Positions 169-47,216 of a stretch of DNA of 51,029 nucleotides are shown here, one piece after another; the stretch's first letter is position 1; each line of letters starts with the position of its first letter. Source of the stretch: Candidatus Hydrothermarchaeota archaeon. Lineage in GTDB: Archaea > Hydrothermarchaeota > Hydrothermarchaeia > Hydrothermarchaeales > JAADFM01. The stretch lies in NCBI GenBank assembly GCA_964534545.1, contig CAZHQS010000001.1, positions 1-51,029 on the forward strand, read 5' to 3'. The translations under genes were made by a program, and so were the position numbers. The notes under the pieces were generated by a model. It saw only the letters and a program-made list of their open reading frames with translations. It ran no database searches and was not told where the DNA came from.

Positions 169-2190
169 ATGAGTGAGCAGATACTAATGGCGGGTGGAGC
201 CGGTGCTCTTGCTATCGCTTTCGCCATATACCTGACGGCCAGTGTGCTCAAAAAGAACCCGGGTAGCGAAAGGATGCAGGAGATCTCCAATGCCACAAGA
301 GAGGGAGCCATGGCATATCTCAAACGGCAGTATATGGCCGTGGCCGTTTTCGTCGTAGTTCTAGCAGCAGCCCTTGCCGTAGCTCCCGGTCTGGGGCCGA
401 AAAATGCTGTAGTTTATGTTTTGGGAGCTGTCCTATCCGCAGGTGCAGGATTTATAGGGATGAACATCGCCACCAGGGCCAACTCCCGGACGACCCAGGC
501 CGCTTCAGAGAGCCTCCACTCCGGTTTGAGGGTGGCATTCTCCAGCGGAGGCGTCATGGGCCTTTCCGTGGTGGGCCTTGGGGTTTTGGGAATAACCATA
601 GGTTATTTCATTCTTCAAGGGATGGTGGGCGATAATGCCGCAGACATTACCAAGGCCCTTGCAAGCTTCGGCCTCGGTGCTTCGTCCATCGCCCTCTTCG
701 CCAGGGTCGGCGGCGGTATCTTCACCAAGGCCGCTGACGTTGGTGCCGACCTGGTAGGTAAGGTCGAGGCAGGCATCCCCGAGGACGACCCGAGGAACCC
801 CGCCACCATCGCCGACAACGTGGGCGACAACGTTGGTGACGTGGCCGGGATGGGTGCCGACCTCTTTGAATCTTACGTGAACTCAATCATCGCCACCATG
901 GCCCTGGGTCTTGCAGCAGGCCTTGGGATGGCCGGTGTCGCAGCGCCAATGCTCATCGCAGGTGCCGGAATCGTCGCTTCCATTATCGGGACCTTCTTTG
1001 TTCGGACCAAAGAGGATGCGACAATGGGCGACCTGCTGTGGTCCCTGAGGTATGGCATCTATGGCGCCTCGCTGATCCTCATAGCATTCGCCTATGGTGT
1101 CGTGACATATCTCGGTATGGACATAAGGGTCCTGTACTCCGTGGTCGTTGGCCTGGTGGCCGGAAATGTCATCGGCTATTTCACCGAGTACTACACCTCT
1201 GCCGAGTACGGGCCTACCAAGAAGGTGGCCAAGGCTGCCGAGACAGGTGCCGGGACGGCGGTCATCAGCGGTCTTGCCGTTGGTATGCTTTCCACTGCCG
1301 TACCCGTCCTTACGGTGGTGGCAGCCATACTGTTGGCCTTTAAATTCATGGGCATGTACGGTGTGGCCATTGCTGCCGTTGGTATGCTCTCGACCCTCGG
1401 TATCACCCTGGCGACCGACGCCTACGGCCCTGTGGCCGATAACGCGGGTGGCATCGCCGAGATGACCGAGGACCTGGACGAGTCGGTTCGAAAGAAGACC
1501 GATGCCCTGGATGCCCTTGGCAATACCACAGCAGCCACCGGTAAAGGGTTCGCCATCGGTTCCGCTGCTTTGACTGCCCTGGCCCTCCTTGCGGCCTATT
1601 CGGCAGCCATAAAGGTCCTCACTGGAGAGGCGTTGATCATCGACCTCACGAACCCCACGGTTCTTAGTGGTCTCTTTATAGGCGCCATGCTGCCCTTCCT
1701 GTTCTCGGCCTTCACCATGAGCGCGGTGGGCAGGGCGGCCTTCGACATGATAAAGGAGGTCCGCAGGCAGTTCAGGGAGATCCCGGGGATCATGGAGGGT
1801 ACGGCCAAGCCGGACTACGCAAGCTGTGTCAGCATTAGCACGGCAGCAGCCCAGCGGGAGATGATCGCCCCCGGACTCATGGCGGTCCTTGCACCACTGA
1901 TCGTTGGGTTGGTCCTCGGTCCTGCGGCCCTCGGCGGTCTGCTGGCCGGTGCAGTGGCGGCAGGGTTCTGCATCGCCGTGATGATGGCCAATGCCGGCGG
2001 TTCCTGGGACAATGCCAAGAAGTACATCGAAGAGGGACACCTGGGCGGCAAGGGCTCCGATGCCCACAAGGCTGCCGTTACCGGGGACACCGTGGGCGAT
2101 CCCTTCAAGGACACCTCGGGCCCATCCATCAACATCCTGATAAAACTGATGTCGGTGGTGGCCCTGGTCTTTGCGCCCCTCTTCGTGTAG
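169..2190 (+). CDS. hppA: membrane-bound proton/sodium-translocating pyrophosphatase
   Basis: 673-aa polytopic ORF with motifs GGGIFTKAADVGADLVGKVE, DNVGDNVGD, GNTTAATGKGFAIGSAAL and DTVGDPFKDTSGPS, typical of M-PPases. GGAGG lies just upstream of the ATG. Confidence 0.95.
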   Translation: MSEQILMAGGAGALAIAFAIYLTASVLKKNPGSERMQEISNATREGAMAYLKRQYMAVAVFVVVLAAALAVAPGLGPKNAVVYVLGAVLSAGAGFIGMNIATRANSRTTQAASESLHSGLRVAFSSGGVMGLSVVGLGVLGITIGYFILQGMVGDNAADITKALASFGLGASSIALFARVGGGIFTKAADVGADLVGKVEAGIPEDDPRNPATIADNVGDNVGDVAGMGADLFESYVNSIIATMALGLAAGLGMAGVAAPMLIAGAGIVASIIGTFFVRTKEDATMGDLLWSLRYGIYGASLILIAFAYGVVTYLGMDIRVLYSVVVGLVAGNVIGYFTEYYTSAEYGPTKKVAKAAETGAGTAVISGLAVGMLSTAVPVLTVVAAILLAFKFMGMYGVAIAAVGMLSTLGITLATDAYGPVADNAGGIAEMTEDLDESVRKKTDALDALGNTTAATGKGFAIGSAALTALALLAAYSAAIKVLTGEALIIDLTNPTVLSGLFIGAMLPFLFSAFTMSAVGRAAFDMIKEVRRQFREIPGIMEGTAKPDYASCVSISTAAAQREMIAPGLMAVLAPLIVGLVLGPAALGGLLAGAVAAGFCIAVMMANAGGSWDNAKKYIEEGHLGGKGSDAHKAAVTGDTVGDPFKDTSGPSINILIKLMSVVALVFAPLFV

Positions 2191-2209
2191 AAGGGCCCTG
2201 GATAGGGAC

Positions 2210-2581
2210 ATGGCGTCCAAGAAACGGGTTTTCCTGGACGCCAACTTTTTCCTTTTACCCTTTCAGTTCGGGGTGGACATCTTCTCGGAACTTGCCAGGG
2301 TTGCACCGGGTTGTGATATCTGTACCATCTCCGGTGTGAAGGAGGAGCTTGAGGCCCTGGCGGCATCCAACAGGGATGCCAGCCCCGCCCTTGGCCTCCT
2401 GGAACAGGTGAAAATGGTCCACAGGGAAGGTCCTGTGGATGAGGCCCTTTTGAGCCTCGCATCCCGGCGGGACATCGTATGTACCAACGATAAAGTTTTA
2501 AAGGAGAAGATAAGAAGAAAGGGTGCGCCAGTTATATACCTCCGCCAGAGGAGGTATCTAGCGGTTGACGGCTATATTTAG
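2210..2581 (+). CDS. PIN-domain nuclease (Fcf1/COG1412-like)
   Basis: ATG at 2210 inside track ORF 2171..2581. N-terminal VFLDANFF and C-terminal CTNDKVLK acidic-residue pattern of PIN domains. It occupies the conserved archaeal position upstream of rpoE-spt4. Confidence 0.7.
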   Translation: MASKKRVFLDANFFLLPFQFGVDIFSELARVAPGCDICTISGVKEELEALAASNRDASPALGLLEQVKMVHREGPVDEALLSLASRRDIVCTNDKVLKEKIRRKGAPVIYLRQRRYLAVDGYI

Positions 2582-2596
2582 GATTAATTTAAGGAG

Positions 2597-3229
2597 TTGG
2601 TTAAAATATTCAAGCTGGTAACCCTTGAAGACCTGGTGAGGGTCCCCCCGGAGAGGTTCGGGAATCCCCTGGAGGATACCATAAAGGATATCCTGAAACG
2701 GGGCTATGACTTCAAGGGCCGACTGGAAGGGGGATACGAGGGAAAGCTCGACAAGGATCTGGGCATGATCCTCCTCATCCTGGAGATAAAGGACATCCAG
2801 GAGGGGAGCCTGATCCCTGGCGACGGTGGGGCATACCATCACGTGAGCTTCGAGGTCTTGACCTTCAAACCCGAGCTCCATGAGGTCTTGGATGCCGAGG
2901 TCATGGAGATCGTGGAGTTCGGGGCCTTCATCAGGTTCGGCCCTATGGACGGCCTCATACATGTCTCCCAGGTCACCGACGACTACATCGTCTACGACGA
3001 GAAGAGGGGTGCCCTCCTGGGCAAGGAGTCCGGCAGGGTCCTGCAGGCCGGGGATAAGGTCCGGGCCAGGATGGTGGCCCTGTCCCTGAACCCCGAGAGG
3101 TCCAAGGAATCCAAGATAAACCTCACCATGCGCCAGCCGGGCCTGGGCAAGTTCGAGTGGCTGGAGGAGGACAAGAAGAAGGGCAAAAAGGCGAAGAAGA
3201 AGGCCCCCAAGAAGGAGGCAAAGAAATGA
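2597..3229 (+). CDS. rpoE: DNA-directed RNA polymerase subunit E' (Rpo7)
   Basis: 210 aa with an N-terminal Rpb7-like fold and an S1 domain (GAFIRFGPMDGLIHVSQV), plus a Lys-rich tail. TTG start. Confidence 0.9.
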   Translation: MVKIFKLVTLEDLVRVPPERFGNPLEDTIKDILKRGYDFKGRLEGGYEGKLDKDLGMILLILEIKDIQEGSLIPGDGGAYHHVSFEVLTFKPELHEVLDAEVMEIVEFGAFIRFGPMDGLIHVSQVTDDYIVYDEKRGALLGKESGRVLQAGDKVRARMVALSLNPERSKESKINLTMRQPGLGKFEWLEEDKKKGKKAKKKAPKKEAKK

Positions 3230-3408
3230 AGGAAAAGGCCTGCAAGGAGTGCAACCGGCTCACCAACCTGGACATCTGCACCCTGTGCAAGTCCCCCACC
3301 TCGCAGGACTGGATTGGATACGTGAGGATCGTGGACCCCGAGAGTTCCGAGGTGGCCAAAAGGCTCCACATCACCACCAAGGGGAAGTTCGCCCTCAAGG
3401 TCAGGTAA
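3226..3408 (+). CDS. spt4: transcription elongation factor Spt4 (RpoE'')
   Basis: 60 aa reading MKEKACKECNRL..CTLCKS..DWIGYVRIVDPESSEVAKRL..GKFALKV, a zinc ribbon plus the Spt4 signature. ATGA overlap with the rpoE stop. Confidence 0.9.
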   Translation: MKEKACKECNRLTNLDICTLCKSPTSQDWIGYVRIVDPESSEVAKRLHITTKGKFALKVR

Positions 3409-3912
3409 ATGGAGACCATCAATATCCCGGAAAACCTGCGCACCCTCTTCAAGGAACCCTTTGGAGACCTCTTTGAGGGCGATGGCCTTGAACCAGCAAA
3501 AAGGGTCAAGGAACTCCTGAAGGACGAGCGTGTCATCGCCGTGGGCGATGTAACGGTGAGGAACCTCCTGGAGGTGGGTATCAGGCCCGCCCTGGCCATC
3601 GTGGATCTAAAGACCAAGCGGGAATCCCTGGAGGCATATGACCTGAAAGGGGAGATGGTCACCGCAAAAAATCCTCCCGGCCAGATAACGGCAGACCTCC
3701 AGGAGAAGATCCATGAGGCAATCACAAAGGACGGTATCATAATACAGGTGGACGGTGAGGAGGACCTGGCGGTCCTCCCCTGCATCCTGGAGGCCGACTG
3801 GGACTCGGTAATCCTCTACGGCCAGCCCTCCCGGGGCATGGTCATGGTCCGGGTTACCGAGGAAAGCAAGATGGTCGCCGCCACCATCTACAGGTCACTG
3901 TTATCCCTTTAA
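3409..3912 (+). CDS. DUF359 protein / GTP-dependent dephospho-CoA kinase
   Basis: 167 aa with VIAVGDVTVRNLLEVGIRPALAIVDLKTKR, typical of the COG1909/DUF359 family. Conserved position between spt4 and rps24e. Confidence 0.8.
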   Translation: METINIPENLRTLFKEPFGDLFEGDGLEPAKRVKELLKDERVIAVGDVTVRNLLEVGIRPALAIVDLKTKRESLEAYDLKGEMVTAKNPPGQITADLQEKIHEAITKDGIIIQVDGEEDLAVLPCILEADWDSVILYGQPSRGMVMVRVTEESKMVAATIYRSLLSL

Positions 3913-6078: not shown

Positions 6079-8454
6079 ATGAGATACAATCTGCGGAAGG
6101 CAAGCCCATACGTTTTTTTGGTGCTGGCCATTCTTACAGTCGACATGGCATGGGCAGGCCACAACGAAGGTGGGAAGGGCACGGTCCTCACCGCCCAGTG
6201 GACCGATGAGCCCATCACCGTGGACGGCCTTGATTCCGAGGAGGCATGGGACCGGGCGAGGGCCATTATCATCCCTGTTGTGGATGGCAAGGTGGGGGAC
6301 GTGGACGTGGAGATGCGGGCCCTCTATGACTCCGAGTACATCTACTTCTTCGTCCAGTGGCCGGACCCCACCAGGAGCGATACCATCCTCTGGAACCGTT
6401 CCGGGGACCGGTGGTATCCCCCCGCCAAGACCACCGAAGACATCTTCTCCATCTTCTGGAACATCAACGAATCGGTCCAGGGCTACAACATCGCCGGCTG
6501 TTCCATTACCTGCCACGCCGACCGGATGCGCACCAACGAGCCCGGGGAGCTCCTGGACTACTGGAAGTGGAAGGCCGAGAAGGGCAACCCATCGGGCTAC
6601 ATGTGGGACGGCTATCTGGACCACACCCTGGTGGAGGAGGAGGAGTACATCACCACCCCCACGGGCCACAAGGTCCTCAAGACCTGGCACGCTCACAAGA
6701 TGGACGAGACCTCCCCTGGGTATGTGAAGGAGCAGGAGAATGCCCTCCTGGACGATGCCGGGAACTACCTGGGGCCCAGGTATTACATTGCCGAGGGGGA
6801 TACCAGCCATATAACGGCCTCTGATATAGGGGACAAGGCGGTGGAGGTGAAGTACGTCCATGGCACGCCTGTGGAGGTTCCGGCCGGGCTGGATGTCCCC
6901 TTCTACATCTCGGAAAGGCCCCCGGGAAGCGCCGGCGACATCGATGCCAGGGGGACCTACTCGGAGGGGATGTGGAACCTGGAGATCAAAAGGGCCCTCA
7001 GGACAGGCCATCCCGATGACGTCCAGTTTGATACCACGGCCCTCTACTGGTTCAGCATTGCGGTCAACGACGATTCCCACGGCGCTGCCAACGAGGGCAG
7101 GGGGAAGGGCCATTCCATCAGCCTCCTGGCCAAGGCCCTGGAGTTCGGGGGTCTGGGCTCGGAGGAAGTGGCGCACCTGAGCCTCTTAAGGGACTACCTC
7201 ACCACCGCCAGGGTATATGCGGCCCGGGGGGACTGGGGTCTGGCCACCTCCGAGATCAACTACGCCCTGGCCCTGCTGGGAGACGTCAGGAACGAGGTGG
7301 CAGCGGCGGACCCGCAACTCTACATCCATATAAAGGACCATTTCACCCTGGCCAAGAGGGCACCAACCCTGGAAAACATCGACGCCCTCATGGATGAGGT
7401 GGACCTGATGATCCTGACCCTCCAGGGTAAGAGGACCCCCCCCAGGCCGACCCTGACCCAGGCCCTCCTTGTGGCATGGGGCAAGGTCCAGCTTTATTTC
7501 TTCATCTTCCTGGCGGTCCTTGCCCTTTATCCCCTCTACAGGACGGTACAGACCGGCCGGAGGCCGGTCTTCAGGAAGATGAGCCTCTTCCTCTTCCTGG
7601 TCATTGTCCCAGTATTCCTGGAGGGCCTGGGCAGGCTTGGGACGGTGCTGGGGATCCCCTTCCTCTACCGGTTCAGCTTCATGACCTCGGAGGGTGCCAC
7701 CCTCCTCTGGGCCTTCCTGATGTTTTTGGCCCTCCTCATGGCAAGGGCTGGCTTCGCCGAGGTTGACAGGAACATCCAGATCCTGGAGGGCCACAGGGCC
7801 GAGCTGAGGAAGAGGGTCATGGAACGAACCAGGGAACTGGAAGAGACCAAGAATTTCCTGGAGAGCGTCTTCAACGGCATAGGGGAGGGGGTCATCGTCC
7901 TGGACCAGGACTACAAGATCATATCCGCTAACAAGATGTATCTCAAGATGGTAAACCGTTCCGAGGATGAGGTCCTGGGACAGCACTGCTACCAGATCTC
8001 CCACCTCCGGGACACCCAGTGCGGTGAAGCAGATCACCACTGCCCGGTAAAGGAGACCATCTCCACAGGGGAACCCTCCCGGGCCGTCCACACCCATTAT
8101 GACAGGGAAGGCAACGAGTACTATGTGGAGGTGAGCTCCTATCCCCTTCTGGACTCCGAAGGAAAGCTCAAATACATCATCGAGAGTGTCATTGATATCA
8201 CCGAGAAGAGGAAGCTGGAGCAGGAGAAGCTTGAGGCAAAGGATGAGACCATCCGTCAGATGAAGCGCCACGAGAAATACGTCTTCGATGTGGCCGACCG
8301 GCTCCGCAACCCCCTCCAGATCTTCATGGGCCACCTGGAGGACTTCGACACCTCAAACTTCGACCAGGAGCAGAAACGGAGGTTCCAGGTGATCCTGGAG
8401 GCCAGCAGGCTGGTGGAGGAGAATATCAAGAAACTCACGGAAAGGGACAGGTGA
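6079..8454 (+). CDS. transmembrane sensor protein: EB_dh/DOMON-like extracytoplasmic domain, 3 TM, Cys-rich PAS, degenerate DHp, no ATPase domain
   Basis: ATG 6079 starts a signal anchor (MRYNLRKASPYVFLVLAILTV). Outer-domain motifs: ITVDGLDSEEAWDRA, MRALYDSEYIYFFVQWPD, WNLEIKRAL. TM helices at about aa 470-570. PAS with GQHCYQISHLRDTQCGEADHHCP. The H-box-like FDVADRLRNPL has Asp where the His belongs, and the ORF ends about 50 aa later. Confidence 0.75.
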   Translation: MRYNLRKASPYVFLVLAILTVDMAWAGHNEGGKGTVLTAQWTDEPITVDGLDSEEAWDRARAIIIPVVDGKVGDVDVEMRALYDSEYIYFFVQWPDPTRSDTILWNRSGDRWYPPAKTTEDIFSIFWNINESVQGYNIAGCSITCHADRMRTNEPGELLDYWKWKAEKGNPSGYMWDGYLDHTLVEEEEYITTPTGHKVLKTWHAHKMDETSPGYVKEQENALLDDAGNYLGPRYYIAEGDTSHITASDIGDKAVEVKYVHGTPVEVPAGLDVPFYISERPPGSAGDIDARGTYSEGMWNLEIKRALRTGHPDDVQFDTTALYWFSIAVNDDSHGAANEGRGKGHSISLLAKALEFGGLGSEEVAHLSLLRDYLTTARVYAARGDWGLATSEINYALALLGDVRNEVAAADPQLYIHIKDHFTLAKRAPTLENIDALMDEVDLMILTLQGKRTPPRPTLTQALLVAWGKVQLYFFIFLAVLALYPLYRTVQTGRRPVFRKMSLFLFLVIVPVFLEGLGRLGTVLGIPFLYRFSFMTSEGATLLWAFLMFLALLMARAGFAEVDRNIQILEGHRAELRKRVMERTRELEETKNFLESVFNGIGEGVIVLDQDYKIISANKMYLKMVNRSEDEVLGQHCYQISHLRDTQCGEADHHCPVKETISTGEPSRAVHTHYDREGNEYYVEVSSYPLLDSEGKLKYIIESVIDITEKRKLEQEKLEAKDETIRQMKRHEKYVFDVADRLRNPLQIFMGHLEDFDTSNFDQEQKRRFQVILEASRLVEENIKKLTERDR

Positions 8455-8497
8455 CCGCATCAGAGAGGGTTTATATTGCACCAGGACAGTAGGTAAT

Positions 8498-9466
8498 ATG
8501 GATAAAAGAAGGTCCTATGCCATCGGCACCCTGGGTATCTTGCTGAACCTGCTCTACTGGGGCTTTGAGGCAGGGGAGTACGGGCTGGGGGGCCTTGTGG
8601 AGGACTTTTACAGGGCACCCACAGAGCATGTGGTCATCCTCGCCCAGATCCCCCTTTTTCTCCTGGTGGGGCGGGTCTTCTACCTCATGGAGAGGCGGGC
8701 CGAGGAGGTGAACAGGGTCAATGAGAGGCTCCAAAGGGAGATAGACCAGCGCAAGAAGGCCGAGGAGGCCATCAAAAACTATGCCCGAAAGCTGGAGGAG
8801 GTCAATACCATCAAGGATCTCTTCACGGATATCATGCGCCACGACCTGCTGAACCCGGCAGGGTCCATCAAGGTACTGACCGACCTTCTCCTTGATGGCG
8901 AGGAGGACCCTGAAAAGAGGGAGGTACTGGAGAAGATCCAGAAGAACTCCTCAAAGCTCATCGAGATGGTCGAGACCGCCTCCCTCTACTCGAAGCTGGA
9001 GGACGCAGAGACCCTGGCGCGCAGCCGCAGCGATCTCAACACCATCCTGAAAGACTGCCTCAAGGGTCTTGAAACCCAGCTTGAAAAGGCAGGGATGGAG
9101 GTCCTTTATTCCCTGGAGGGGGAGTATCCCGTCCAGGTGAACCCCATCATCGAGAACGTGTTCTCGAACTTCATCACCAACGCCATCAAGTACGCCTCCA
9201 CAGGGAAGAAGATTGAAATCGGTGTCAGGGATGGTGGGGACACGTGGCAGGTCTATGTCAAGGACTACGGAGAGGGCATCGCGGACCTGGACAAGGAGAA
9301 GCTCTTCACCAGGTTCCAGCGCCTGGGAAAGGAGGGGGTCAAGGGGACGGGCCTGGGCCTGACCATTGCCAAACGGGTGGTGGAGCTCCACGGCGGGCGC
9401 ATCTGGGTGGAAGACAATCCCGAGGGTGGGAGCATCTTCTATGTAGAGCTGCCGAAGGCCTCATAG
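8498..9466 (+). CDS. sensor histidine kinase (2 TM, HisKA, HATPase_c)
   Basis: 322 aa. H-box FTDIMRHDLLNPAGSI, N-box NFITNAIKY, G-boxes DYGEGI and GTGLGLTIAKRVVELHGGRIWVEDNPEGGSIFYVELP. Confidence 0.9.
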   Translation: MDKRRSYAIGTLGILLNLLYWGFEAGEYGLGGLVEDFYRAPTEHVVILAQIPLFLLVGRVFYLMERRAEEVNRVNERLQREIDQRKKAEEAIKNYARKLEEVNTIKDLFTDIMRHDLLNPAGSIKVLTDLLLDGEEDPEKREVLEKIQKNSSKLIEMVETASLYSKLEDAETLARSRSDLNTILKDCLKGLETQLEKAGMEVLYSLEGEYPVQVNPIIENVFSNFITNAIKYASTGKKIEIGVRDGGDTWQVYVKDYGEGIADLDKEKLFTRFQRLGKEGVKGTGLGLTIAKRVVELHGGRIWVEDNPEGGSIFYVELPKAS

Positions 9467-9571
9467 CGGTATTGGAGCGAAGAGGAAATACCGCAATCTG
9501 ATGATGCAACTTTCCCGGGGTAATATTCTTATACCGGGCGGGCCTAACAACACATAAGGTGGTGCCACATC

Positions 9572-10663
9572 TTGGATGCCTCTAGAAAGGAACAGTTTCT
9601 GTCCCAGATCGTGGAGAATACCGGTGATGCCATAATAGGCTTTGATCACCAGGGCAATATTAACTTCTGGAACAAGGGGGCCCAGGAGCTCTTCGGCTAC
9701 CGTAGGCTTGAAATCGAGGGACGGCCCTTCAAGATCCTTGTCCCCGAGGACCTGGAGGGGGAGTTTGATGAGATCTTTGAACGATTGAAGGACGGGGAGG
9801 TGATAAAGGGTATGGAAACAGAGCGGGTGGCCAAGGACGGATCCAGGTTATATGTCTCCACCACCTTGAGCCCCATCCTGGACGGGTGGAGGATCATCGG
9901 CTACTCGGCCATCATCAGGGATATCTCGGAGACAAGGGAGCTGAGGGCAATGTTGGCCAAGGCCCGGCAGCTCCAGCAGACCCTCTTCCTGACCGACAAG
10001 CTGGCGAGCCTCTCGGCCCTGGCAAAGGGGATCGCCCACGAGGTGAACAACCCCCTTACAGCCATAATGACCTATACCCAGCTCCTCCTGGAGGACCTTG
10101 GGAAGGTGGAGAAGGACCCTCAGAGGATGGAGAGGAGCCTTAGGAAGATAGAGGAGGATGTGAAGAGGTGCAAGAGCACCCTCAGGCTCTTCCTTGATAC
10201 CGCCGAGACCCCCGACGACATCACCAATATATCCCTGGTGGACCTCATGAAGAAGGTCCTGGCCTTCCAGGAGCAGAGGCTGGTGAACCAGGGGATCCAG
10301 GTGGAGGAGGAGGTGACGGACGTGAAGATCGAGGGAAGCGAGATCCGCCTCTTCCTGGTCTTCAACGGTATCCTTTCCAATGCCATCGAGGCCATGCCGG
10401 AGGGGGGGAGCCTCCGGTACACCATCAAGGAGGAGGACGAAAGGGCCATCATCACCATCAGGGACACCGGGAAGGGCATCCCTCCTGAGGACATCAACAG
10501 GATCTTTGACCCTTTCTTCACCACCAAGGAACTGGGCCAGGGATCCGGGGTGAGCCTGTACTTCTGCTACGATACTATTAAAAGGATGGGAGGTAATATA
10601 ATGGTTGAAAGCAAGGTTGGAGAAGGTTCCACCTTTATCATCCAACTGCCCAGGAAGGGTTGA
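9572..10663 (+). CDS. cytoplasmic PAS-domain sensor histidine kinase
   Basis: 363 aa. PAS (IVENTGDAIIGFD..WNKGAQELFGY), H-box GIAHEVNNPLTAI, and ATPase motifs DTGKGIPPEDINRIFDPFFTTK and GSGVSL. TTG start, so the start is uncertain. Confidence 0.9.
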   Translation: MDASRKEQFLSQIVENTGDAIIGFDHQGNINFWNKGAQELFGYRRLEIEGRPFKILVPEDLEGEFDEIFERLKDGEVIKGMETERVAKDGSRLYVSTTLSPILDGWRIIGYSAIIRDISETRELRAMLAKARQLQQTLFLTDKLASLSALAKGIAHEVNNPLTAIMTYTQLLLEDLGKVEKDPQRMERSLRKIEEDVKRCKSTLRLFLDTAETPDDITNISLVDLMKKVLAFQEQRLVNQGIQVEEEVTDVKIEGSEIRLFLVFNGILSNAIEAMPEGGSLRYTIKEEDERAIITIRDTGKGIPPEDINRIFDPFFTTKELGQGSGVSLYFCYDTIKRMGGNIMVESKVGEGSTFIIQLPRKG

Positions 10664-10666
10664 GGT

Positions 10667-11680
10667 ATGGAGAAGCCATCGATACTGGTTGTGGACGACG
10701 AGGAGTCCATAAGACTCAGCCTCTCCATTCTGCTCAAGAAGGAAGGGTTTCATGTAGAGGAGGCCGCCAGTGGGGAGGAGGCCCTGGAGAAACTGCGGAC
10801 CAACAGGTATGACATCGTCATCAGCGATATCATGATGCCCGAGCTGGATGGCATCACCCTGCTGAAGAAGATCAAGGAGCTGGACCGCAAGATCGATGTG
10901 ATCCTGATCACGGCCTATGCCAACCTGGACCGGGCTATCCAGAGCCTGAGACACGGGGCATCGGATTTCATCCAGAAGCCCTATGAGAACCAGGATATCA
11001 TCAGGGCCGTGTCCAAGATCATGGAGGACAGAAAACTCGAGGCCGCCTTTGAGACAGAGAAGACGTTGCCCTTCGCCTTCAATGCATCACAGAAGGAGCT
11101 GCTCCTGAGGCTCTTCAACGACGGTGTCAAGGACCTGGAGATATCCCTGAAGGAGATTGCGGGAGATATCAAACTCGAGGTCGAGGACCTGACGGTGGAG
11201 GACCTGAAGAACTTCCCGGCCCACGTGGGGGGCGAGGGTGTGCCCATGATGGGGGCCTATGTGGGTATCTACGGGGACCTCTCGGGGAGTTTCATGATGG
11301 TCTTCCAGGTGGAGGACTGCATATCCCTGGTGGAGTTCGTCATCGGGGAGAAGGTGGGGACCATCGATTTCAACCTCCCCACGGAGAGGGGGTCCAAGAC
11401 GGTGATGGAACTGGGGGACATCCTGGCCAACTCCTATCTCCTGGGCCTGAGGGAGTCCACGGAGATGATACTGAAGTCCACACCCCCAACCTTCGTTCAC
11501 TTCACGTCAGGCAACATCAGGTCCTTCATGGAGGTGCGCACCGGGAAGGGGACCCATTACAGCATCCTCACCCCCCTGAGGGTGTCCTTTGTGACCGACA
11601 CGGCCCGGACCCTGGTGGGCTACCTGATCTCCATCTTCGGACTCCGGAGCATGCGGTTGCTCTCCGAGAAGATTGTATGA
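10667..11680 (+). CDS. response regulator: receiver domain fused to a CheC/CheX-like C-terminal domain
   Basis: REC motifs VVDDEES, DIVISDIMMPELDG and ILITAY..K. The C-terminal 200 aa carry VMELGDILANSYLLGL..STPP, which resembles but does not exactly match the CheC ExxN..P motif. Confidence 0.7.
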   Translation: MEKPSILVVDDEESIRLSLSILLKKEGFHVEEAASGEEALEKLRTNRYDIVISDIMMPELDGITLLKKIKELDRKIDVILITAYANLDRAIQSLRHGASDFIQKPYENQDIIRAVSKIMEDRKLEAAFETEKTLPFAFNASQKELLLRLFNDGVKDLEISLKEIAGDIKLEVEDLTVEDLKNFPAHVGGEGVPMMGAYVGIYGDLSGSFMMVFQVEDCISLVEFVIGEKVGTIDFNLPTERGSKTVMELGDILANSYLLGLRESTEMILKSTPPTFVHFTSGNIRSFMEVRTGKGTHYSILTPLRVSFVTDTARTLVGYLISIFGLRSMRLLSEKIV

Positions 11681-11693
11681 GGGGATGGAGGGG

Positions 11694-11719
11694 GAACATG
11701 TTCGGGGAAAGGATATTAT
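11694..11719 (+). promoter_or_regulatory. 10-bp perfect palindrome GAACATGTTC followed by GGGGAAAGGATATTAT (BRE/TATA-like); copy 1
   Basis: Seen directly. It lies 37-62 nt upstream of the ATG at 11756. A near-identical copy is at 13024..13050. Confidence 0.55.
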
Positions 11720-11755
11720 CCCCCCGCAGGGAAGTATGATAGAGGTGATCTCCTG

Positions 11756-13018
11756 ATGGGCAAGAGGACCTCCATCTTCTGCATGGCCGCTGCCAATGTG
11801 TACTTCGTCCTTGCTCTCTTCCTGGGGCTTTTGATGATCCTGGGGGTGGTCGGGTCCGGGGAATTCAAGACTGCCCACGCCCACCTGGCCCTCCTGGGCT
11901 GGGTCTCTCTGACCATCATAGGGGCCATGTACGAGCAGGTCCCCAACCTCACCGCCGCCGACCTCTACAGCAAAAAGACAGCCTGGTGGTCCTTCTGGGT
12001 CTACAACCTGGGCCTGGTGGGTCTGGCAGGGGGACTGGCCTTTGAGGTCCCCGATATCCTCCTGGCGACCTCCGCGGCCCTCCTCCTCCTGGGCGTATAT
12101 GCCTTTGCCGGCAATATCTTCATGACCGTAAAAAACCGCCGGGCCCCCAACCCCATCCTGAAGTTCTATACAGCCTCGGTGGTCTATTTCGTCCTGGCCT
12201 CCACCTTCGGCGGTGCCCTGGTGCTGAACCGCATGGGGGTAATCGACCTCACCACCGTTTTTGTCAGGTACACAACCGCCCACGCCCACCTGGGATTTTT
12301 GGGCTGGGCCTCCCTCATCATCATCGGGGCCCTCTCCTGGATGTTCCCCATGGTGGTCATGAGGGACATCCACAGCCAGAAGCTCATGGATGCCGTCTTC
12401 TGGCTATTCAACCTGGGGGCCATGGGTTTCGCCCTGGGCCTTTTGACCGGGGGGCTTGGCACCCTCTCCCTGGCCTCCGCCCTGGTGGTGTTCCTGTCCA
12501 TAGCCCTTTTTTCCTACAACCTCCTCATGACGGCCCTGAAAAAACAGGTGAAGATGCAGATGACGGCCGATGCCACCGAGGCCCCCTTCTTCTATGGTGC
12601 GGTTTTCTATTTCTTCCTGGTGGCCCTCCTGGGCCTTGCCATGCTCCTTGGGCCGGAGACCGTAAAGTCCGTCTCCCCCGCCCACGGCCACCTGGCCCTC
12701 CTGGGCTTTGTCTCCCTGACCATCTTCGGGGGCATGTACCACCTCATACCCATGCTCACCTGGACCCTCATAACCAAGAAGATGGCGGCCGCCGGACCCC
12801 AGGGGTCCCCCCCATCCCTGCCCAAGTCCCTCCACGAGCTCTACAGCGTCAAACTGGCCAAGGTGGTCTTCTGGGGCTTCAACCTGGGTACCCTGGCCCT
12901 CGGGGCAGGCATGTACCTGGGCCAGCAGACCCTGGCTGCGGCCGCCGGCCTGGTCCTTTTTGCCTCGGGGACCCTCTTTAGTCTGGACATGTTCAGATGC
13001 ATCAAAAGGGGGCTATAG
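11756..13018 (+). CDS. 12-TM membrane protein with three internal 4-TM repeats, each with an HxH..LGW motif (heme-copper-oxidase helix-X-like)
   Basis: 420 aa. TAHAHLALLGWVSLTIIGAMYEQVP (H41/H43), TAHAHLGFLGWASLIIIGALSWMFP (H176/H178), PAHGHLALLGFVSLTIFGGMYHLIP (H310/H312). FW-x-F/Y-NLG also repeats three times. Confidence 0.8.
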   Translation: MGKRTSIFCMAAANVYFVLALFLGLLMILGVVGSGEFKTAHAHLALLGWVSLTIIGAMYEQVPNLTAADLYSKKTAWWSFWVYNLGLVGLAGGLAFEVPDILLATSAALLLLGVYAFAGNIFMTVKNRRAPNPILKFYTASVVYFVLASTFGGALVLNRMGVIDLTTVFVRYTTAHAHLGFLGWASLIIIGALSWMFPMVVMRDIHSQKLMDAVFWLFNLGAMGFALGLLTGGLGTLSLASALVVFLSIALFSYNLLMTALKKQVKMQMTADATEAPFFYGAVFYFFLVALLGLAMLLGPETVKSVSPAHGHLALLGFVSLTIFGGMYHLIPMLTWTLITKKMAAAGPQGSPPSLPKSLHELYSVKLAKVVFWGFNLGTLALGAGMYLGQQTLAAAAGLVLFASGTLFSLDMFRCIKRGL

Positions 13019-13023
13019 GCCAC

Positions 13024-13050
13024 GAACATGTTCGGGAAAAAGGATATTAT
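13024..13050 (+). promoter_or_regulatory. GAACATGTTC palindrome plus GGGAAAAAGGATATTAT (BRE/TATA-like); copy 2
   Basis: Seen directly, 33-59 nt upstream of the ATG at 13083. A 9/10 partial site GACATGTTC is at 12986..12994. Confidence 0.55.
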
Positions 13051-13082
13051 GTTACATTATAATGTTATTACAGGTGTTTTAA

Positions 13083-13334
13083 ATGCTGGAATGCCCTGGC
13101 TCCAAGATCATCAAGTCCCCGACCATAGAGTTCATAAAGTGCCCCTATTGCCAGTCCGAGGTGGAGATATTCTCGGACGAGACCACCGCCCTCTGCGACC
13201 GGTGCGGCAAGGAGGTCACCCGGGCCGCCGCCCTGGCCTGCATAGAGTGGTGCCAGTCGGCCAGGGAGTGCGTCGGGGAGGAGAAGTACCAGGAGCTCAT
13301 GAAGGCCAAGGAGGCAGATCAAAATGGTGGATGA
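13083..13334 (+). CDS. small Cys-rich zinc-ribbon protein (8 Cys)
   Basis: 83 aa. CPYC..x14..CDRC ribbon, then ACIEWCQSARECVG. No family recognised. Confidence 0.6.
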   Translation: MLECPGSKIIKSPTIEFIKCPYCQSEVEIFSDETTALCDRCGKEVTRAAALACIEWCQSARECVGEEKYQELMKAKEADQNGG

Positions 13335-13602
13335 AGAGAAGGTAATCGAGGCCCTGAAGGGTGTCATGGACCCCCATACGGGCCAGGATGTCTATGAGAT
13401 GGGTCTTATACGGAACCTGAAGATCGAGGGAAGCACGGTGAGCCTCGAGTTCGTCCCCTCCAGCCCCTACTGCCCCCTGGGGGAGCACCTGGCCACTTCC
13501 ATCAAGAAGGCCGTCCAGGATACGGAGGGCGTTGAAAGGGTCGATATTACAGTGGAGGGCTATGTCCAGAAGGACGCCCTTAACCAGATATTGAAGGGAT
13601 AG
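13324..13602 (+). CDS. DUF59/MIP18-family Fe-S cluster assembly protein (SufT/PaaD-like)
   Basis: 92 aa. VIEALKGVMDPHTGQDVYEMGLIRNLKIEG..V.LEFVPSSPYCPLGEHL is the classic DUF59 pattern. It overlaps the previous ORF by 11 nt. Confidence 0.85.
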   Translation: MVDEEKVIEALKGVMDPHTGQDVYEMGLIRNLKIEGSTVSLEFVPSSPYCPLGEHLATSIKKAVQDTEGVERVDITVEGYVQKDALNQILKG

Positions 13603-13615
13603 GAGGTTTAAGGGA

Positions 13616-13735
13616 ATGGCAGAATGTTTCAACTGCAAACGGTCTGAAGACGAAGAGAAGCTCCTCCAGTTCAGGCACAAGGGGGAGGACAACTTTGTAT
13701 GTGTCAAGTGCCTGCCCATGCTGATCCACGGGTGA
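13616..13735 (+). CDS. 39-aa CxxC..CxxC mini zinc-ribbon ORF
   Basis: MAECFNCKRSEDEEKLLQFRHKGEDNFVCVKCLPMLIHG. AGGAGG lies 9 nt upstream. Below the track length cutoff. Confidence 0.45.
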   Translation: MAECFNCKRSEDEEKLLQFRHKGEDNFVCVKCLPMLIHG

Positions 13736-14102: not shown

Positions 14103-14729
14103 ATGATTGAAGCCGTCCTCATCATGAAGATGCCCAAGAGCTGCGCCATGCGCCACGTCTCCATGGCCGAGGCCAGGGTGAAGGTGGTCCAGGCCCGGCC
14201 CTACCAGGAGGAGGGGGTTGCCTCCCTGATGGAGATCAAGGCCGAGGAGGAGTGCCTGAAGAACCTCATGGAGACCATCTCGGAGGACCCCGGGGTCTAT
14301 CGGAGCGATTTTTCGGCCACAGGGGGTGGAAGGACCAAGGCGGCCGTGGCGGTGAAGAGGTGCGTGCCGGCCAGGGACATCGTGGAGTCGGAGTGTTTCA
14401 TCTCCGCTGCCAGGATGGAGGGAGAGGATATCGTCTGGCACCTCATCGCCACCAGGGAGGCCCTGAAGAGGCTTTCCGAGAGGCTGCAAAGCCATGGTTT
14501 CGACTTCAAGCTCAAGAAGATCGGCAAGCTGACGGAGGAGGAGACCCTGACGGAGAAGGAGGACGAGATCCTCCGCTATGCCATCGAGAAGGGGTATTTC
14601 GAGACCCCCAAGAGGGTGGGGGTCCGGGAGATAGCCAAGCATTTCGGTATATCGATTTCTACCCTGTCGGAGATCCTCAGGCGGGGCCAGAAGAAGGTCA
14701 TCCTCTCCTTTTTTAAGGGGAAGGATTGA
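14103..14729 (+). CDS. HTH_10 (bacterio-opsin activator-type) transcriptional regulator
   Basis: C-terminal LTEKEDEILRYAIEKGYFETPKRVGVREIAKHFGISISTLSEILRRGQKKV matches the Bat-type HTH. Confidence 0.8.
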   Translation: MIEAVLIMKMPKSCAMRHVSMAEARVKVVQARPYQEEGVASLMEIKAEEECLKNLMETISEDPGVYRSDFSATGGGRTKAAVAVKRCVPARDIVESECFISAARMEGEDIVWHLIATREALKRLSERLQSHGFDFKLKKIGKLTEEETLTEKEDEILRYAIEKGYFETPKRVGVREIAKHFGISISTLSEILRRGQKKVILSFFKGKD

Positions 14730-14731
14730 AG

Positions 14732-15481
14732 ATGAGGGTCCTGTTGCTCCTGATGGTCCTCCTGGCCGGATGCCTCGGGGCCTCCCCGGAGAAGGATACC
14801 GTGGTCTTCGACCTCTCCCACCTGGAGGCCTTCCAGCCCATTGACGTGGACACCCTGGGATATACGGCCTTCTACAACATGTTCCAGGATGCAGGCTACG
14901 ATACCCAGGCCTGGGTGGAGCCCCTGAGCAGGGAGTCCCTGGAGGATGCCGCCGTTCTGGTCCTGGCCGGACCCCTCCTGCCCCTGAGCCAGGAGGAGAA
15001 CAGAATCATCCTGGACTTCGTCAGGGGAGGCGGCAACCTGCTGATATTCCTCCACATAGCCCCACCGGTGGCCCCCCTCTGCAAGGAGTTCGGCATCCTC
15101 ACCACCACGGGACCCATCCTGGAGGGCGCCCATATCATCGAGGGGGACCCGGCGGACTTTTATGTCACCCGGGTGGCGGAGCACCCTGTTACCGAGGGAG
15201 TCAGCGCCATAGCGGTCTACGGCTGCTGGGGCCTTGGCAGGTTCGAGGACGAGGTGGAGATCCTGGCCACCAGCACCCCCCAGGCATGGATCGACTCCAA
15301 CGGGGACAGGACCTACCAGGAGGGGGAGTTCAGGGATACCTACGGCATCGTGGCGGTGCGCAGCTATGGCAGGGGGAAGGTGGTGGTGGTGGCCGATGAC
15401 GCCCCCTTCATCGACCGGTTCCTGGACCAGGGGGACAACCGGCGACTGGCAGGGAACATCATCGCCTGGTTCGGGGAGTAG
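14732..15481 (+). CDS. exported lipobox protein, DUF4350-like
   Basis: Signal peptide with LLAGC lipobox. LVLAGP, GGGNLLIF and GKVVVVADD pattern. Start is either ATG 14732 or TTG 14726. Confidence 0.5.
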   Translation: MRVLLLLMVLLAGCLGASPEKDTVVFDLSHLEAFQPIDVDTLGYTAFYNMFQDAGYDTQAWVEPLSRESLEDAAVLVLAGPLLPLSQEENRIILDFVRGGGNLLIFLHIAPPVAPLCKEFGILTTTGPILEGAHIIEGDPADFYVTRVAEHPVTEGVSAIAVYGCWGLGRFEDEVEILATSTPQAWIDSNGDRTYQEGEFRDTYGIVAVRSYGRGKVVVVADDAPFIDRFLDQGDNRRLAGNIIAWFGE

Positions 15482-16257: not shown

Positions 16258-18420
16258 TCATCTACCTCTCTTATCCTGGTAATCATTGATTGAGTATCCT
16301 TCCACCTCCTCCGAAGCGCAGGTGTAGGTCCAGTAGCCGATGAGGGTGTCCTTGGCGATTCTCCTAGTCTGTTCCCACATGGCCTCCGGGGAGGGATTGG
16401 CCTCCTCCATACAGACCTGGGCCATCATTCCCCCGGTATTCAGGGGATGGAAGGCCCCCTCTAACCGGAGCCTCTCCATCAGGGGCACCCGGGCATCCAC
16501 CCGGACATGGGAGGAGTTGGTGTAATATATGCTCCCGGCCTCCCTGTCCCCCTGGACCACGGCCCTGGATGAGAACCTGCCATAGTCGAGCTTTGCCAGG
16601 CGGTAGGCCGTGGACTCTGCCGGGCTCTGGCTCAGGACCCACCGGAGTCCCGTCTCCTCGCTCCAGCGCCTGGTGGCCTCTGACATATATCCTACAACCT
16701 TCAGGCCGAAGCGCCAGGCAGCTTCGTCCTGGTGCATCTCATGGCCCGTGAAGGCCCTGCACATCTCGTTGACACCCACGTAGCCCAGGGAGTGGACCGC
16801 CCGGTTTATCCTGTAGTAGGGCTCCCCCTCCACATCCTGGCTCAGGAAGGGCAGGTGGCCGCCCTCCAGCCTGCTCCGGATGATGTCCCTTTTCACCTCG
16901 ATGGTCCTCTTGGCCATCTCCATGCGCTCCTCCAGGATCTGGTAGAACTTCGAATCGTCGCCGGCTGCCTCGTAGGCGATCCTGGGCAGATTGACGGAGA
17001 CCACCTGGAGGCTCCCGGTGCGCAGGGTCCCCCTCATCAGGTCCTCCAGGTCTTCCCTGTCAGGTTGCAGAAGGAGTCTGCCGCCCTGGGCGAAGGTATT
17101 GTCCGGGAGGTAGTCAGCATGTAGATTGAGGAAGTAGGGGGTCCCGTATTTGACCGCCGTTTCATGTACCTGGACCATAAAGTCGTCGTAGCCCTCCTTC
17201 TTCAGGTCCTCCTTTCTCAGCTTGTAGTTAGGCCGGGGAAAGGAGAAGGGCTTCCCGGTGTGGTCCCCCTCCAGGTAGACCTCGGTGAGGGCCCGGGCAA
17301 AGAGCCTGGCCTCCTCTTCGAAATCACCATAGGTGACCCGGTCCCTGACTATGCCCCCAGGGAGAACGGCCGGGACGTCGGCCACCATGGAGGGGCACCC
17401 GTACTCGATGTCTATATCTGAGAAGACGGTCTGACCCCCCCGCCCCACGTACATCTGGCTTATCTCATAGATGCACATCTGGGCCAGCTGTTTTATCCTG
17501 GGGTAGTCCAGGCCCTCCAGGTAGGGCGCAAGCCAGAGGTTGAAGAAGTCCAGATCCTGACCCCCGGCGAAGTTGGTCTGGGCCGCTGCCAGGACCTTGG
17601 CGGCATGGAGGACGGCCACCTCGGCCTTCTTGGCCGGTCCGGCCACGGAGGTGTGCTTCCCGGTCCCGTCCACCTTCAGGCCGGTCCTCAAAAACCACCG
17701 GAGGTCGTGCTGGCCGCAGTAGGGCCTGGTGGGGAAATACTCCAGGTCATGGATATGGATGTCCCCCCGCATGTGGGCATCGGCCAGGTCCAGGGGCAGG
17801 ACCTTCAGGAGGGTGTACTCCCTGAAGATGTTGTCTGCCATGAGCTTGTGGATGGTCTCGGGGTTGTGCAGGTTGGCCCTTTCGGCGGAATCTATCTCAA
17901 TGAGGCGGGTGGCATCGTAGACCGGCATCCCCAGCCGGGTATAGTCCGCCCGGGCCTCCTCCAGGCCGTGCTCCAGAAGCTTGACGTTGACGATCTCCCT
18001 GATCAGGGGGCCGCTTATGAAGTCGAGCTTCAACCGCCGAAGCTCATCCTCCGCCTCCCTGGCCACATTCTCGGCCACCTCCTGGGGGATCCTGGTTTCC
18101 TGTAGCAGGGACCGGGTAATCTTTTTCCTGTCGAAGGACTCGATGGTGTTATCCGAGGTCCGCACCTTCATGGAATGAAACTGCCTGTAGCGCTCGGCAT
18201 CCTCGGGGCTCTTCCTTGCAAGGGCCTCCAGGGTCTCCTGCTGGAGGTCCCTGGTGGATATGCCGTCATAGACCTCCCGGGCCACCTCCTGGGCCACCTC
18301 GGCTGCCGTGTAGAAGCCGATACCTGCCTCCACGCACTCCCTCATTATGACGTTGGGGTCGAAGTTCTCGGTATCTCCGGAGGACTTTACCACCCTGACA
18401 CCATACTTTGCCACTGCCAT
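16258..18420 (-). CDS. nrdD: class III (anaerobic) ribonucleotide reductase homologue with ATP-cone; catalytic motifs atypical
   Basis: ATP-cone at the N-terminus. GDIHIHDLEYF..YCGQHDL, GKPFSFPRPNY, GTPYFLNL and VVSVNLPRIAYEA match NrdD. ATG 18420 is preferred over TTG 18456. See the finding on the missing Cys. Confidence 0.75.
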   Translation of the reverse strand: MAVAKYGVRVVKSSGDTENFDPNVIMRECVEAGIGFYTAAEVAQEVAREVYDGISTRDLQQETLEALARKSPEDAERYRQFHSMKVRTSDNTIESFDRKKITRSLLQETRIPQEVAENVAREAEDELRRLKLDFISGPLIREIVNVKLLEHGLEEARADYTRLGMPVYDATRLIEIDSAERANLHNPETIHKLMADNIFREYTLLKVLPLDLADAHMRGDIHIHDLEYFPTRPYCGQHDLRWFLRTGLKVDGTGKHTSVAGPAKKAEVAVLHAAKVLAAAQTNFAGGQDLDFFNLWLAPYLEGLDYPRIKQLAQMCIYEISQMYVGRGGQTVFSDIDIEYGCPSMVADVPAVLPGGIVRDRVTYGDFEEEARLFARALTEVYLEGDHTGKPFSFPRPNYKLRKEDLKKEGYDDFMVQVHETAVKYGTPYFLNLHADYLPDNTFAQGGRLLLQPDREDLEDLMRGTLRTGSLQVVSVNLPRIAYEAAGDDSKFYQILEERMEMAKRTIEVKRDIIRSRLEGGHLPFLSQDVEGEPYYRINRAVHSLGYVGVNEMCRAFTGHEMHQDEAAWRFGLKVVGYMSEATRRWSEETGLRWVLSQSPAESTAYRLAKLDYGRFSSRAVVQGDREAGSIYYTNSSHVRVDARVPLMERLRLEGAFHPLNTGGMMAQVCMEEANPSPEAMWEQTRRIAKDTLIGYWTYTCASEEVEGYSINDYQDKRGR

Positions 18421-18631
18421 CTTTATTGACCCCGACGTATTTAAGTTTTCGAACAATAGTATCCTAAACTGTTAACCAATTCTAAGTATCATACATATAT
18501 AAATGTTTCTGACTGGTTATGTTAACTATAAAGGGGAAATTATTTATATATGTAAACCAACCGATATTGGATAGGTATCAAATCTCTTTAGTGGTTAGAA
18601 AGGTTAACCGATGCCACCAGTGGAGTGAAAG

Positions 18632-43829: not shown

Positions 43830-43884
43830 TGACAAAAAAGTACTTATAGGGGCTAACCCATAATGTTTTGTGGGGTGATGGTTG

Positions 43885-45165: not shown

Positions 45166-45172
45166 AGGGTCT

Positions 45173-45307: not shown

Positions 45308-45377
45308 TGTTTCACCCGTCAGCGAAGGATGACGGATGTTTATAAAGGGAAAAATCCCCCGGCCCCGGGTGGCCGCT

Positions 45378-47213: not shown

Positions 47214-47216
47214 CCT

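Follow-up and report, generated by a model that had tools for sequence, protein, structure and literature searches.

A heme-copper oxidase-like membrane protein with conserved zinc-ribbon and DUF59 partners behind a nor/nos-type operator in an archaeal genome

The described proteins that come closest to the locus analysed here are the HCO-homology (HCOH) proteins, HCO standing for heme-copper oxidase. Pei and colleagues are said to have described them in 2014 as homologues of HCO subunit I with 12 transmembrane (TM) segments in three four-helix units, short of the six catalytic histidines, and the group, which reportedly includes NnrS, is reportedly linked to denitrification and to nitric oxide (NO) detoxification. 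NnrS itself, a membrane protein with heme, shields iron metabolism from NO. Here we examine an archaeal window of 51,029 nucleotides (nt; positions 1 to 51,029 of contig CAZHQS010000001.1, assembly GCA_964534545.1), and in it a + strand gene at 11756-13018 for a 12-TM protein of 420 residues with three His-x-His motifs, which we call the HxH protein, together with the small genes that follow it. The original prediction, made from the DNA letters, had joined this gene to the two-component signalling genes upstream of it as one system with no described counterpart. Our analysis of profiles and a structural model indicates that the HxH protein is a member of the HCO superfamily, and we find that it forms a conserved unit with three small proteins and that the signalling genes are an unrelated neighbour. 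Moreover, the palindrome which the prediction had noticed is a published operator of haloarchaeal nor and nosZ genes, so that both the membrane protein and its control element have described relatives.

The superfamily assignment comes from computed comparisons of sequence and of fold. The HxH protein matches Pfam COX1 (E = 4e-28) in three stretches, and a profile of its family, run against PDB sequences, matches CcoN of cbb3 oxidases (8smr_E, E = 8e-13; 3mk7_A) and NorB. A model made with AlphaFold2 (AF2) has 12 helices with a predicted local distance difference test score (pLDDT) of 92.9 and a predicted TM-score (pTM) of 0.92. Its best Foldseek match is CcoN 8smr_E, with a TM-score of 0.81, and the other top matches are all HCO subunit I or NorB. 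The protein consists of three four-helix units of ~135 residues that are 32-38% identical to one another (BLASTP E 2e-18 to 2e-12), each with one HxH motif (H41/43, H176/178 and H310/312) near the outer end of TM2, TM6 or TM10, in a topology that we read from the sequence, with K/R-rich even loops and termini. The complete list of histidines is 41, 43, 176, 178, 206, 310, 312, 329 and 360, and H329 is conserved as well. The triple repeat and its motifs had been correctly described in the original prediction, which did not recognise the homology to HCO subunit I.

How close does this protein come to a true oxidase or NO reductase (NOR)? It shares with CcoN and NorB the fold and the aligned ligand histidines of TM2, TM6 and TM10, predicted to lie in the outer leaflet. 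In the alignment to cbb3 oxidases, H43 falls on the CuB histidine of TM6, and H176/H178 fall on the HxH of TM10, which in CcoN reportedly ligates hemes b3 and b (Buschmann et al. 2010). The ligand positions of HCO and NOR on TM2, TM6 and TM10 are all His in the window protein (H41, H178, H310, H312), and canonical HCO-like matches carry the pattern H-x/x-H/H-H in the same columns. However, the TM7 His-His pair that makes the CuB or FeB site is absent: there is no HH dipeptide in the window protein or in any of 28 six-His relatives, whereas the genuine HCO-like matches P0024, P0028 and P0088 have one at the TM7 position. Since this pair is missing, we conclude from sequence and model that the HxH protein cannot be counted among the canonical oxidases or NO reductases. 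It also differs from CcoN and NorB in being shorter (~400-420 residues) and in its extra histidines, which would add a third site, all of the sites being bis-His. Moreover, no electron-entry partner (subunit II, CcoO/CcoP or NorC) is encoded in the module of the window or in those of the relatives at L002 and L005-L009. Database entries name the relatives 'cbb3-type cytochrome c oxidase subunit I'. Because the HxH protein scores 73 bits with the NCBIfam ccoN model against a cut-off of 583, this name is a mis-annotation, and one that would falsely imply aerobic respiration in these archaea.

The comparison with HCOH proteins gives both likenesses and differences. As HCOH proteins are reportedly defined, the window protein resembles them as an HCO subunit I homologue with three 4-TM units and an incomplete catalytic His set. 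It differs in that its family is found directly by Pfam COX1 and not by NnrS, in having six His with an HxH in every unit, where two His are reportedly typical of HCOH proteins, in having units that are still 32-48% identical to each other, and in having fixed partners. Membership of the NnrS family itself we rejected, as the NnrS profile (PF05940) gives no match in the window protein; the profile has a sub-threshold match (E = 0.0018) in one relative, P0061, only.

The family is rare. There are ~10 close relatives among 5.8 billion clustered proteins, two loci in 185,579 species genomes (GTDB representatives), namely in Ca. Hydrothermarchaeum profundi JdFR-18 and in an unclassified archaeon, and two loci in JGI metagenome contigs. 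Each of the latter two scans gave only duplicates of the loci L001 and L003, and about eight or nine independent loci underlie our neighbourhood statistics. The window is a complete contig found in public assemblies, and fragments identical to it are seen in JGI sample 3300038380 and two SRA runs. In the JGI copy (L014) a 29-N gap at 281-309 interrupts the HxH gene, which is annotated as products of 233 and 198 residues. We considered and rejected the possibility that this is a frameshifted pseudogene, the run of N being an assembly artefact. With this gap in the gene in one assembly, the exact HxH protein is missing from the protein collection.

An exhaustive profile search returned 2,156 relatives at E ≤ 1e-3, including 72 at E ≤ 1e-30. 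For 189 sequences of nearly full length we then recorded which residue stands at each of the six His positions. These include a six-His class with His at all six positions (n = 29), a three-His class with H43, H176 and H178 plus Tyr310 (n ~ 100), a two-His class with H43 and H176 (n ~ 32) and a canonical HCO class with H41, H178, H310 and H312, small in number. The geometry of HCO predicts that the second His of each unit pairs with the first His of the next. We explicitly saw that the predicted pair 43+176 is concordant in 99% and the pair 312+41 in 97% of the 189 sequences, and that 178+310 is retained (as His/His or His/Tyr) or lost jointly; these classes reflect few independent events among related sequences, and the figures are to be read as support for the pairing and not as proof. 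Classes short of exactly one pair exist (HH/xx/HH, xx/HH/HH, HH/HY/xx), while half-sites are rare. The pattern fits three ligand pairs, and for the six-His family this would mean as many as three bis-His hemes. In one six-His member, P0061, a signal peptide stands at the N-terminus and a CxxCH faces the outside, which would be consistent with electron delivery to outer-leaflet hemes.

The units themselves remain more alike in some members, with internal identity of up to 42-48% in P0010 and P0058. Unit 1 of the window protein is no closer to unit 1 of distant members than to their units 2 or 3. No position dominates among the units, and either a strong symmetric constraint or recurrent triplication or gene conversion would seem to have been at work. 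The literature on internal symmetry or triplication in HCO proteins yielded nothing specific, and nothing was found under 'HCOH'. Other architectures also occur in the wider family, a tandem-duplicated 12-TM HCO-like protein and a DUF3108 fusion, among P0121 (862 residues) and P0187 (704 residues).

Which genes keep company with the HxH gene? We read the neighbourhoods of the relatives and then rescanned them in six frames with hidden Markov models (HMMs) of the small proteins. Across about eight loci, at 31-75% identity to the window protein, the conserved unit consists of the HxH protein, an 8-Cys zinc ribbon, a DUF59 protein and a 39-residue ribbon. In the window the three small genes follow on the + strand at 13083-13334, 13324-13602 and 13616-13735. 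The closest relative, L002 (75%), has the same order, HxH, Cys-rich, DUF59 and mini ribbon, as do L006 (47%) and, behind a cupin gene, L007 (46%). In L005 (46%) the Cys-rich and DUF59 proteins are fused and are followed by the mini ribbon, and in L003/L017 (46%) the HxH and Cys-rich genes run to the contig end. The more distant loci vary in order: a divergent HTH_10 gene followed by mini ribbon, DUF59, Cys-rich, DUF1858/ScdA_N and HxH in L008 (31%), DUF59, HxH and DUF1858/ScdA_N in L009 (36%), and cupin, mini ribbon and HxH in Hydrothermarchaeum (L001/L018, 44%), where DUF59 lies 10 kb upstream. Otherwise the surroundings of the module differ between loci.

The first of the partners is a cytoplasmic protein of 83 residues. 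All eight of its Cys are invariant, with C20, C23, C38 and C41 forming the ribbon core and C4, C53, C57 and C63 in addition. The protein is present in seven of nine module loci, and in L005 it is fused to DUF59. Its AF2 model has a pLDDT of 79, its PDB matches are non-significant and to generic zinc ribbons (S27e, Nsp2), and against Pfam and NCBIfam it gives sub-threshold ribbon matches only. The second is a DUF59 (FeS_assembly_P) protein (Pfam E = 9e-20) with the conserved cysteine of an SPYCP motif. It is adjacent in seven of eight loci and lies within 10 kb in the eighth; there are no suf genes near it within the window. The third is a 39-residue mini zinc ribbon of the form CxxC...CxxC (CFNC...VCVKCLPMLIHG). 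It stands next to the module in L001, L002, L005, L006, L007 and L008 with a highly conserved …VCV[KR]C[LM]PM[LF]IHG, and has no Pfam or NCBIfam match. A suspected likeness to the ClpX-type zinc finger was not supported. The mini ribbon gene (38-41 residues) is systematically missed: several public records leave it uncalled or call it on the opposite, wrong strand, and such missed copies lie at 9871-9987 in L001, 5116-5240 in L008, ~4516-4635 in L005 and ~9995-10114 in L002. The original prediction had named all three small proteins, and these identifications hold.

The bond between the membrane protein and DUF59 extends beyond the six-His family. In the three-His sister subfamily DUF59 occurs as a C-terminal fusion in five clusters at 50% identity, and a bacterial member (P0016 locus, L010/L011, GCA_964531325.1), likewise of the three-His type, lies beside DUF59 in the order nosZ-nosL-nosD-nosF-nosY-Rrf2-DUF2249-[HCO-like]-DUF59-cupin. 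Given these fusions and this nos-cluster member, the link is ancient and strong. From the gene order of L010, clade-type nos clusters would seem to have a set of accessory genes that is as yet uncharacterised.

Other neighbours of the relatives bear on function. ScdA_N/DUF1858 lies within the module at L008 and L009, L001 has NIR_SIR and a cytochrome c and COX1 pair near the HxH gene, and L005 and L006 have Lactamase_B_3, ArsR-type HTH_5 and SBF transporter genes beside the module. An association with denitrification or NO detoxification is thus seen in the relatives L001, L008, L009 and L010, while in the window only the nor/nos-type operator points to one. These surroundings recall the iron-repair proteins RIC/ScdA/YtfE and SufT, in that DUF59 is always present, ScdA_N/DUF1858 or DUF2249 occurs in the modules of relatives, and Rrf2 regulators stand nearby in the bacterial subfamily. 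However, the window module has no hemerythrin-like di-iron domain, and its DUF59 protein is not the SUF-associated equivalog. To our knowledge no coupling of RIC or SufT to a membrane HCO-like protein has been described. An Rfam scan of the window found one tRNA and no riboswitch or small RNA at the module locus.

We now turn to the control of the module. Within the 51 kb there are exactly two copies of the palindrome GAACATGTTC, at 11694 and 13024, each with GGG(G)AAA and then GATATTAT behind it. Operator 1, GGAACATGTTCG (11693-11704, palindrome 11694-11703), stands 62 nt ahead of the HxH start codon, with GGGAAA and the TATA-like GATATTAT at 11712-11719, and is conserved in L002. The promoter element of the HxH gene sits within a 75-nt spacer. 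Operator 2, CGAACATGTTCG (13023-13034), lies 59 nt before the start of the Cys-rich gene, with GATATTAT at 13043-13050, and is conserved in L002, L007 and L008. In the relatives the operator stands at both promoters of L002, at the Cys-rich gene of L007 and at the mini-ribbon gene of L008, which gives six sites in four lineages, all 59-62 nt from start codons. Every site has the form GAACATGTTCGGG followed by an A/T-rich box, the general form of the operator being (C/G)GAACATGTTCG, and the flanks have diverged. The shared palindrome-plus-TATA element of the original prediction is therefore borne out at a fixed distance in three relatives. An imperfect second palindrome, GGACATGTTC, lies at 12985-12994, where the HxH coding sequence nears its 3' end and operator 2 is 39 nt further downstream, and may be an auxiliary, half-conserved site.

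The sequence of operator 2, CGAACATGTTCG, is identical in every letter to the motif in the nor and nosZ promoters of Haloferax mediterranei, where point mutations alter anaerobic promoter activity (PMC10062603). The regulon consensus CGAAYATDKTYG, whose core this motif forms, precedes nar, nirK, nor, nos and DUF2249 genes and a gene for a bacterio-opsin-activator-like regulator (PMC11218638), and the motif has been tied to regulators of the HTH_10 type, among them the Hfx. volcanii protein NarO (PMC10062603, PMC11218638). This consensus is matched at 12 of 12 positions at 13023-13034 and at 11 of 12 at 11693-11704. In its 11-mer form it gives 3 strand-hits in the window, at these two sites only, against 0.27 expected. 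The haloarchaeal NarO regulon is thus similar in its identical 12-mer, in an HTH_10 regulator encoded nearby and in the distance between operator and ATG (59-62 nt here, 66-79 nt there). It differs in that the window belongs to a non-halophilic lineage, probably related to Hydrothermarchaeales, in that no nar, nir, nor or nos gene is among its targets, and in that the Cys motif of the putative regulator is partial.

Which protein reads this operator? A gene for an HTH_10 regulator (bacterio-opsin-activator/NarO-type helix-turn-helix; Pfam E = 6e-19) lies at 14103-14729 on the + strand, outside the interval of the original prediction. Because a full-length orthologue of it (35% identity, E = 5e-47) is divergent from the operator, beside the module, in L008, the HTH_10 protein is most likely the one that binds the palindrome, and we propose it as the candidate regulator. 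The position of the operator directly upstream of the transcription factor B recognition element (BRE) and TATA box suggests activation. The protein of the signalling genes with a receiver domain was also considered as the binder and rejected, since it has no DNA-binding domain. Downstream, at 14726-15481 (+), there is a gene for a DUF4350/ABC_transp_aux-like protein with a lipoprotein-type signal (…LLAGCLG…); since it overlaps the HTH_10 stop codon by 4 nt, it is probably co-transcribed with the HTH_10 gene.

How might these parts work together? The explanation that we prefer, and to which we would give about an even chance, is a small regulon rather than a signalling cascade: an HCOH-type (NnrS-like) module under HTH_10 control that would protect or repair iron centres under anoxia or in the presence of N-oxides. 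The HTH_10 regulator would bind (C/G)GAACATGTTCG at the two promoters, and both would be switched on under anoxia or by N-oxides, as the identical motif does for Haloferax nor and nosZ. The 12-TM protein would present its three near-equivalent units with the HxH motifs of TM2, TM6 and TM10 in the outer leaflet, and its six His would form the ligand pairs H43+H176, H178+H310 and H312+H41. These pairs could ligate as many as three b-type hemes, each bis-His, arranged as a triangle with no CuB/FeB site, two of them at the HCO heme sites and the third in the pore that corresponds to the D-channel pore of oxidases, which is cofactor-free there. On the cytoplasmic side the 8-Cys zinc ribbon, the DUF59 protein and the 4-Cys mini ribbon would handle iron or iron-sulfur (Fe-S) clusters, the membrane cytochrome would supply or drain electrons or bind NO, and the module as a whole would protect or repair iron or Fe-S centres in NO or redox stress. 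By analogy with NnrS/HCOH and RIC/ScdA, and given the ScdA_N/DUF1858, DUF2249, Rrf2, nos, NIR_SIR and cytochrome c plus COX1 genes near the relatives, such a role in iron-centre protection or repair under NO or redox stress is probable. The broader theme of heme, redox or gas sensing in the original prediction was in this sense reasonable.

A more specific version of this explanation we put forward tentatively, as possible but rather doubtful. The HxH protein would be a quasi-C3-symmetric, tri-heme member of the HCO superfamily, either a surviving near-copy of a triplicated four-helix ancestor or a recent re-triplication, with its third heme in what later became the D-channel pore. Together with DUF59 and two zinc ribbons it would form an uncharacterised, anoxia- or NO-induced system of iron-centre protection under a NarO-like regulator, with an operator common to Halobacteria and distant anaerobic archaea.

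Several observations weigh against the regulon or against its tri-heme form. There are no denitrification genes in the window, and a strictly anaerobic organism is suggested by NrdD, an anaerobic ribonucleotide reductase with ATP-cone domains (16258-18456, − strand). L001, L005 and L006 have no copy of the operator, the HTH_10 gene lies beside only two loci, and of the C-x2-C-x7-C cluster of the L008 HTH_10 protein the window protein keeps part only. DUF59 proteins have several roles, and the one in the window scores 52.5 bits with the SufT/SUF-associated model TIGR02945, far below the cut-off of 143.4. We infer heme binding of the HxH protein from homology. Moreover, it is hard to see a vectorial role for three hemes at equal membrane depth, and a heme with two His ligands would leave no open site for NO.

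The HxH protein can also be read in other ways. If the database name of its relatives were taken at its word, it would be the catalytic subunit of a cbb3-type oxidase or NO reductase, reducing O2 or NO at a heme/non-heme-metal centre, and the COX1 fold with His at all four ligand positions of TM2, TM6 and TM10, the cytochrome c plus COX1 pair and NIR_SIR near the L001 gene, and the nor/nos-type operator would suit such an enzyme. However, with both TM7 His of the CuB/FeB site absent in 28 of 28 six-His members, a ccoN score this far under its cut-off, no CcoO, CcoP, NorC or subunit II gene in the module, and extra His that would render the 'catalytic' heme six-coordinate, we consider this quite unlikely. 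It is also unlikely, in our view, that the six outer-leaflet His bind metal ions (Fe, Cu or Zn) for uptake and hand-over to the Cys-rich, DUF59 and mini-ribbon proteins as chaperones. This reading draws on the invariable linkage, in relatives even fusion, with DUF59 and Cys-rich metal-binding proteins, on DUF59 being a family of Fe-S or metal assembly, and on the Lactamase_B_3, HTH_5 and SBF genes at L005 and L006; yet the His stand at HCO heme-ligand positions and are lost in heme-type pairs, the residues of an HxH point to opposite helix faces and cannot chelate one ion, and the outer CxxCH of P0061 suggests electron transfer. We know of no HCO-fold protein that acts as a transporter.

A further possibility, the one raised by the original prediction, is a single circuit that runs from a sensor through two kinases and a response regulator to the HxH protein as dedicated effector. 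The genes in question are an EB_dh-TM-PAS sensor (6079-8454, alternative start 6052), a membrane HisKA-HATPase histidine kinase (8498-9466), a PAS-HisKA-HATPase histidine kinase (9572-10663) and a REC plus CheC/CheX-like response regulator (10667-11680), all on the + strand and identified with Pfam. They are contiguous with the HxH gene on the same strand, in L002 the sensor, REC gene and module are likewise contiguous, and an EB_dh heme-type sensor domain would suit a redox or N-oxide theme. Nevertheless, six other loci (L001, L005, L006, L007, L008 and L009) carry the module with no two-component genes next to it. Signalling genes adjoin it only in the window and in L002, which lacks both kinases and is the only one of the examined module loci with a REC orthologue. 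A 66% sensor orthologue in L012 follows Kae1-Bud32 as in the window, with no REC gene or module beside it, its next gene being TIM on the opposite strand. EB_dh sensors form a multi-copy family of complete kinases in Hydrothermarchaeales, with REC genes of their own; the output of the regulator here is CheC/CheX-like and not DNA-binding; and a separate conserved operator, which goes with an HTH_10 gene, serves the module. Because the module occurs without these genes at six loci, L002 is without the kinases and the L012 sensor is without the module, the signalling genes are not part of the module, and the single circuit is very unlikely. The neighbourhood comparison that the original prediction had proposed thus found the signalling orthologues scattered, and the EB_dh sensor, the two kinases and the REC-CheC regulator are an independent, lineage-specific two-component cluster.

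The description of these four genes was itself largely accurate. Open reading frames and Pfam matches show eight genes, not eleven, on the + strand of 6079-13735, and the + strand run extends upstream into the housekeeping genes S24e, Kae1 and Bud32. In the sensor, Pfam finds EB_dh, TM segments and PAS and matches neither HisKA nor HATPase, whereas its homologues at 45-54% identity are complete histidine kinases, so that the kinase-less sensor of the original prediction is confirmed. Its C-terminus (8300-8454) keeps a helix like that of the dimerisation and histidine phosphotransfer (DHp) domain after PAS, with no ATPase domain, and its H-box reads ADRLRNPL, in which Asp replaces the phospho-acceptor His; it may perhaps be a pseudo-kinase partner of the two kinases downstream. 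These were also identified correctly, each with HisKA and HATPase, and the cluster is a two-component one by virtue of them and of the REC receiver. The regulator has a REC domain, and the matches of its C-terminal half to CheC (3qta_A, E = 1e-4) and CheX (E = 6e-3) are weak.

Two observations concern the genome at large. L001 has an NRDD gene (1870-3801) ~7 kb from its HxH gene, and this linkage may be residual synteny. At the other end of the window the GC content falls from ~0.58 to 0.38-0.49 past 45 kb. The region 43882-51029 begins with a weak Phage_integrase-family ORF (43882-45165) and encodes on the minus strand two large secreted proteins, one with DUF2341 (611 residues) and one with fn3/MG2/FTP (1190 residues); it is probably an integrated island.

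Returning to the regulon that we prefer, its membrane protein and its operator are of kinds already known, the one an HCO-homology protein and the other the nor/nos operator of haloarchaea. What appears to be new is a near-symmetric six-His subfamily found directly by COX1, its fixed set of partners (8-Cys ribbon, DUF59 and 39-residue ribbon), the DUF59 fusions in the sister family, and, in a lineage related to Hydrothermarchaeales, a Haloferax operator that is accompanied by an HTH_10 regulator.

An exact Haloferax nor/nosZ operator in non-halophilic anaerobes would place this type of regulon beyond the haloarchaea and nominates a regulator family for it. The partnership with DUF59, together with the bacterial fusions near nos, Rrf2 and DUF2249 genes, gives a concrete functional lead for two large 'unknown' groups, the HCO-like membrane proteins mis-annotated as cbb3 oxidase and the DUF59 proteins that stand alone. 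If the six His do bind three hemes, the HxH protein would represent a state of the HCO fold in which its units had not yet taken on their separate tasks of low-spin heme site, catalytic site and proton channel, and the origin of respiratory oxidases and NO reductases would become testable on a protein of ~400 residues.

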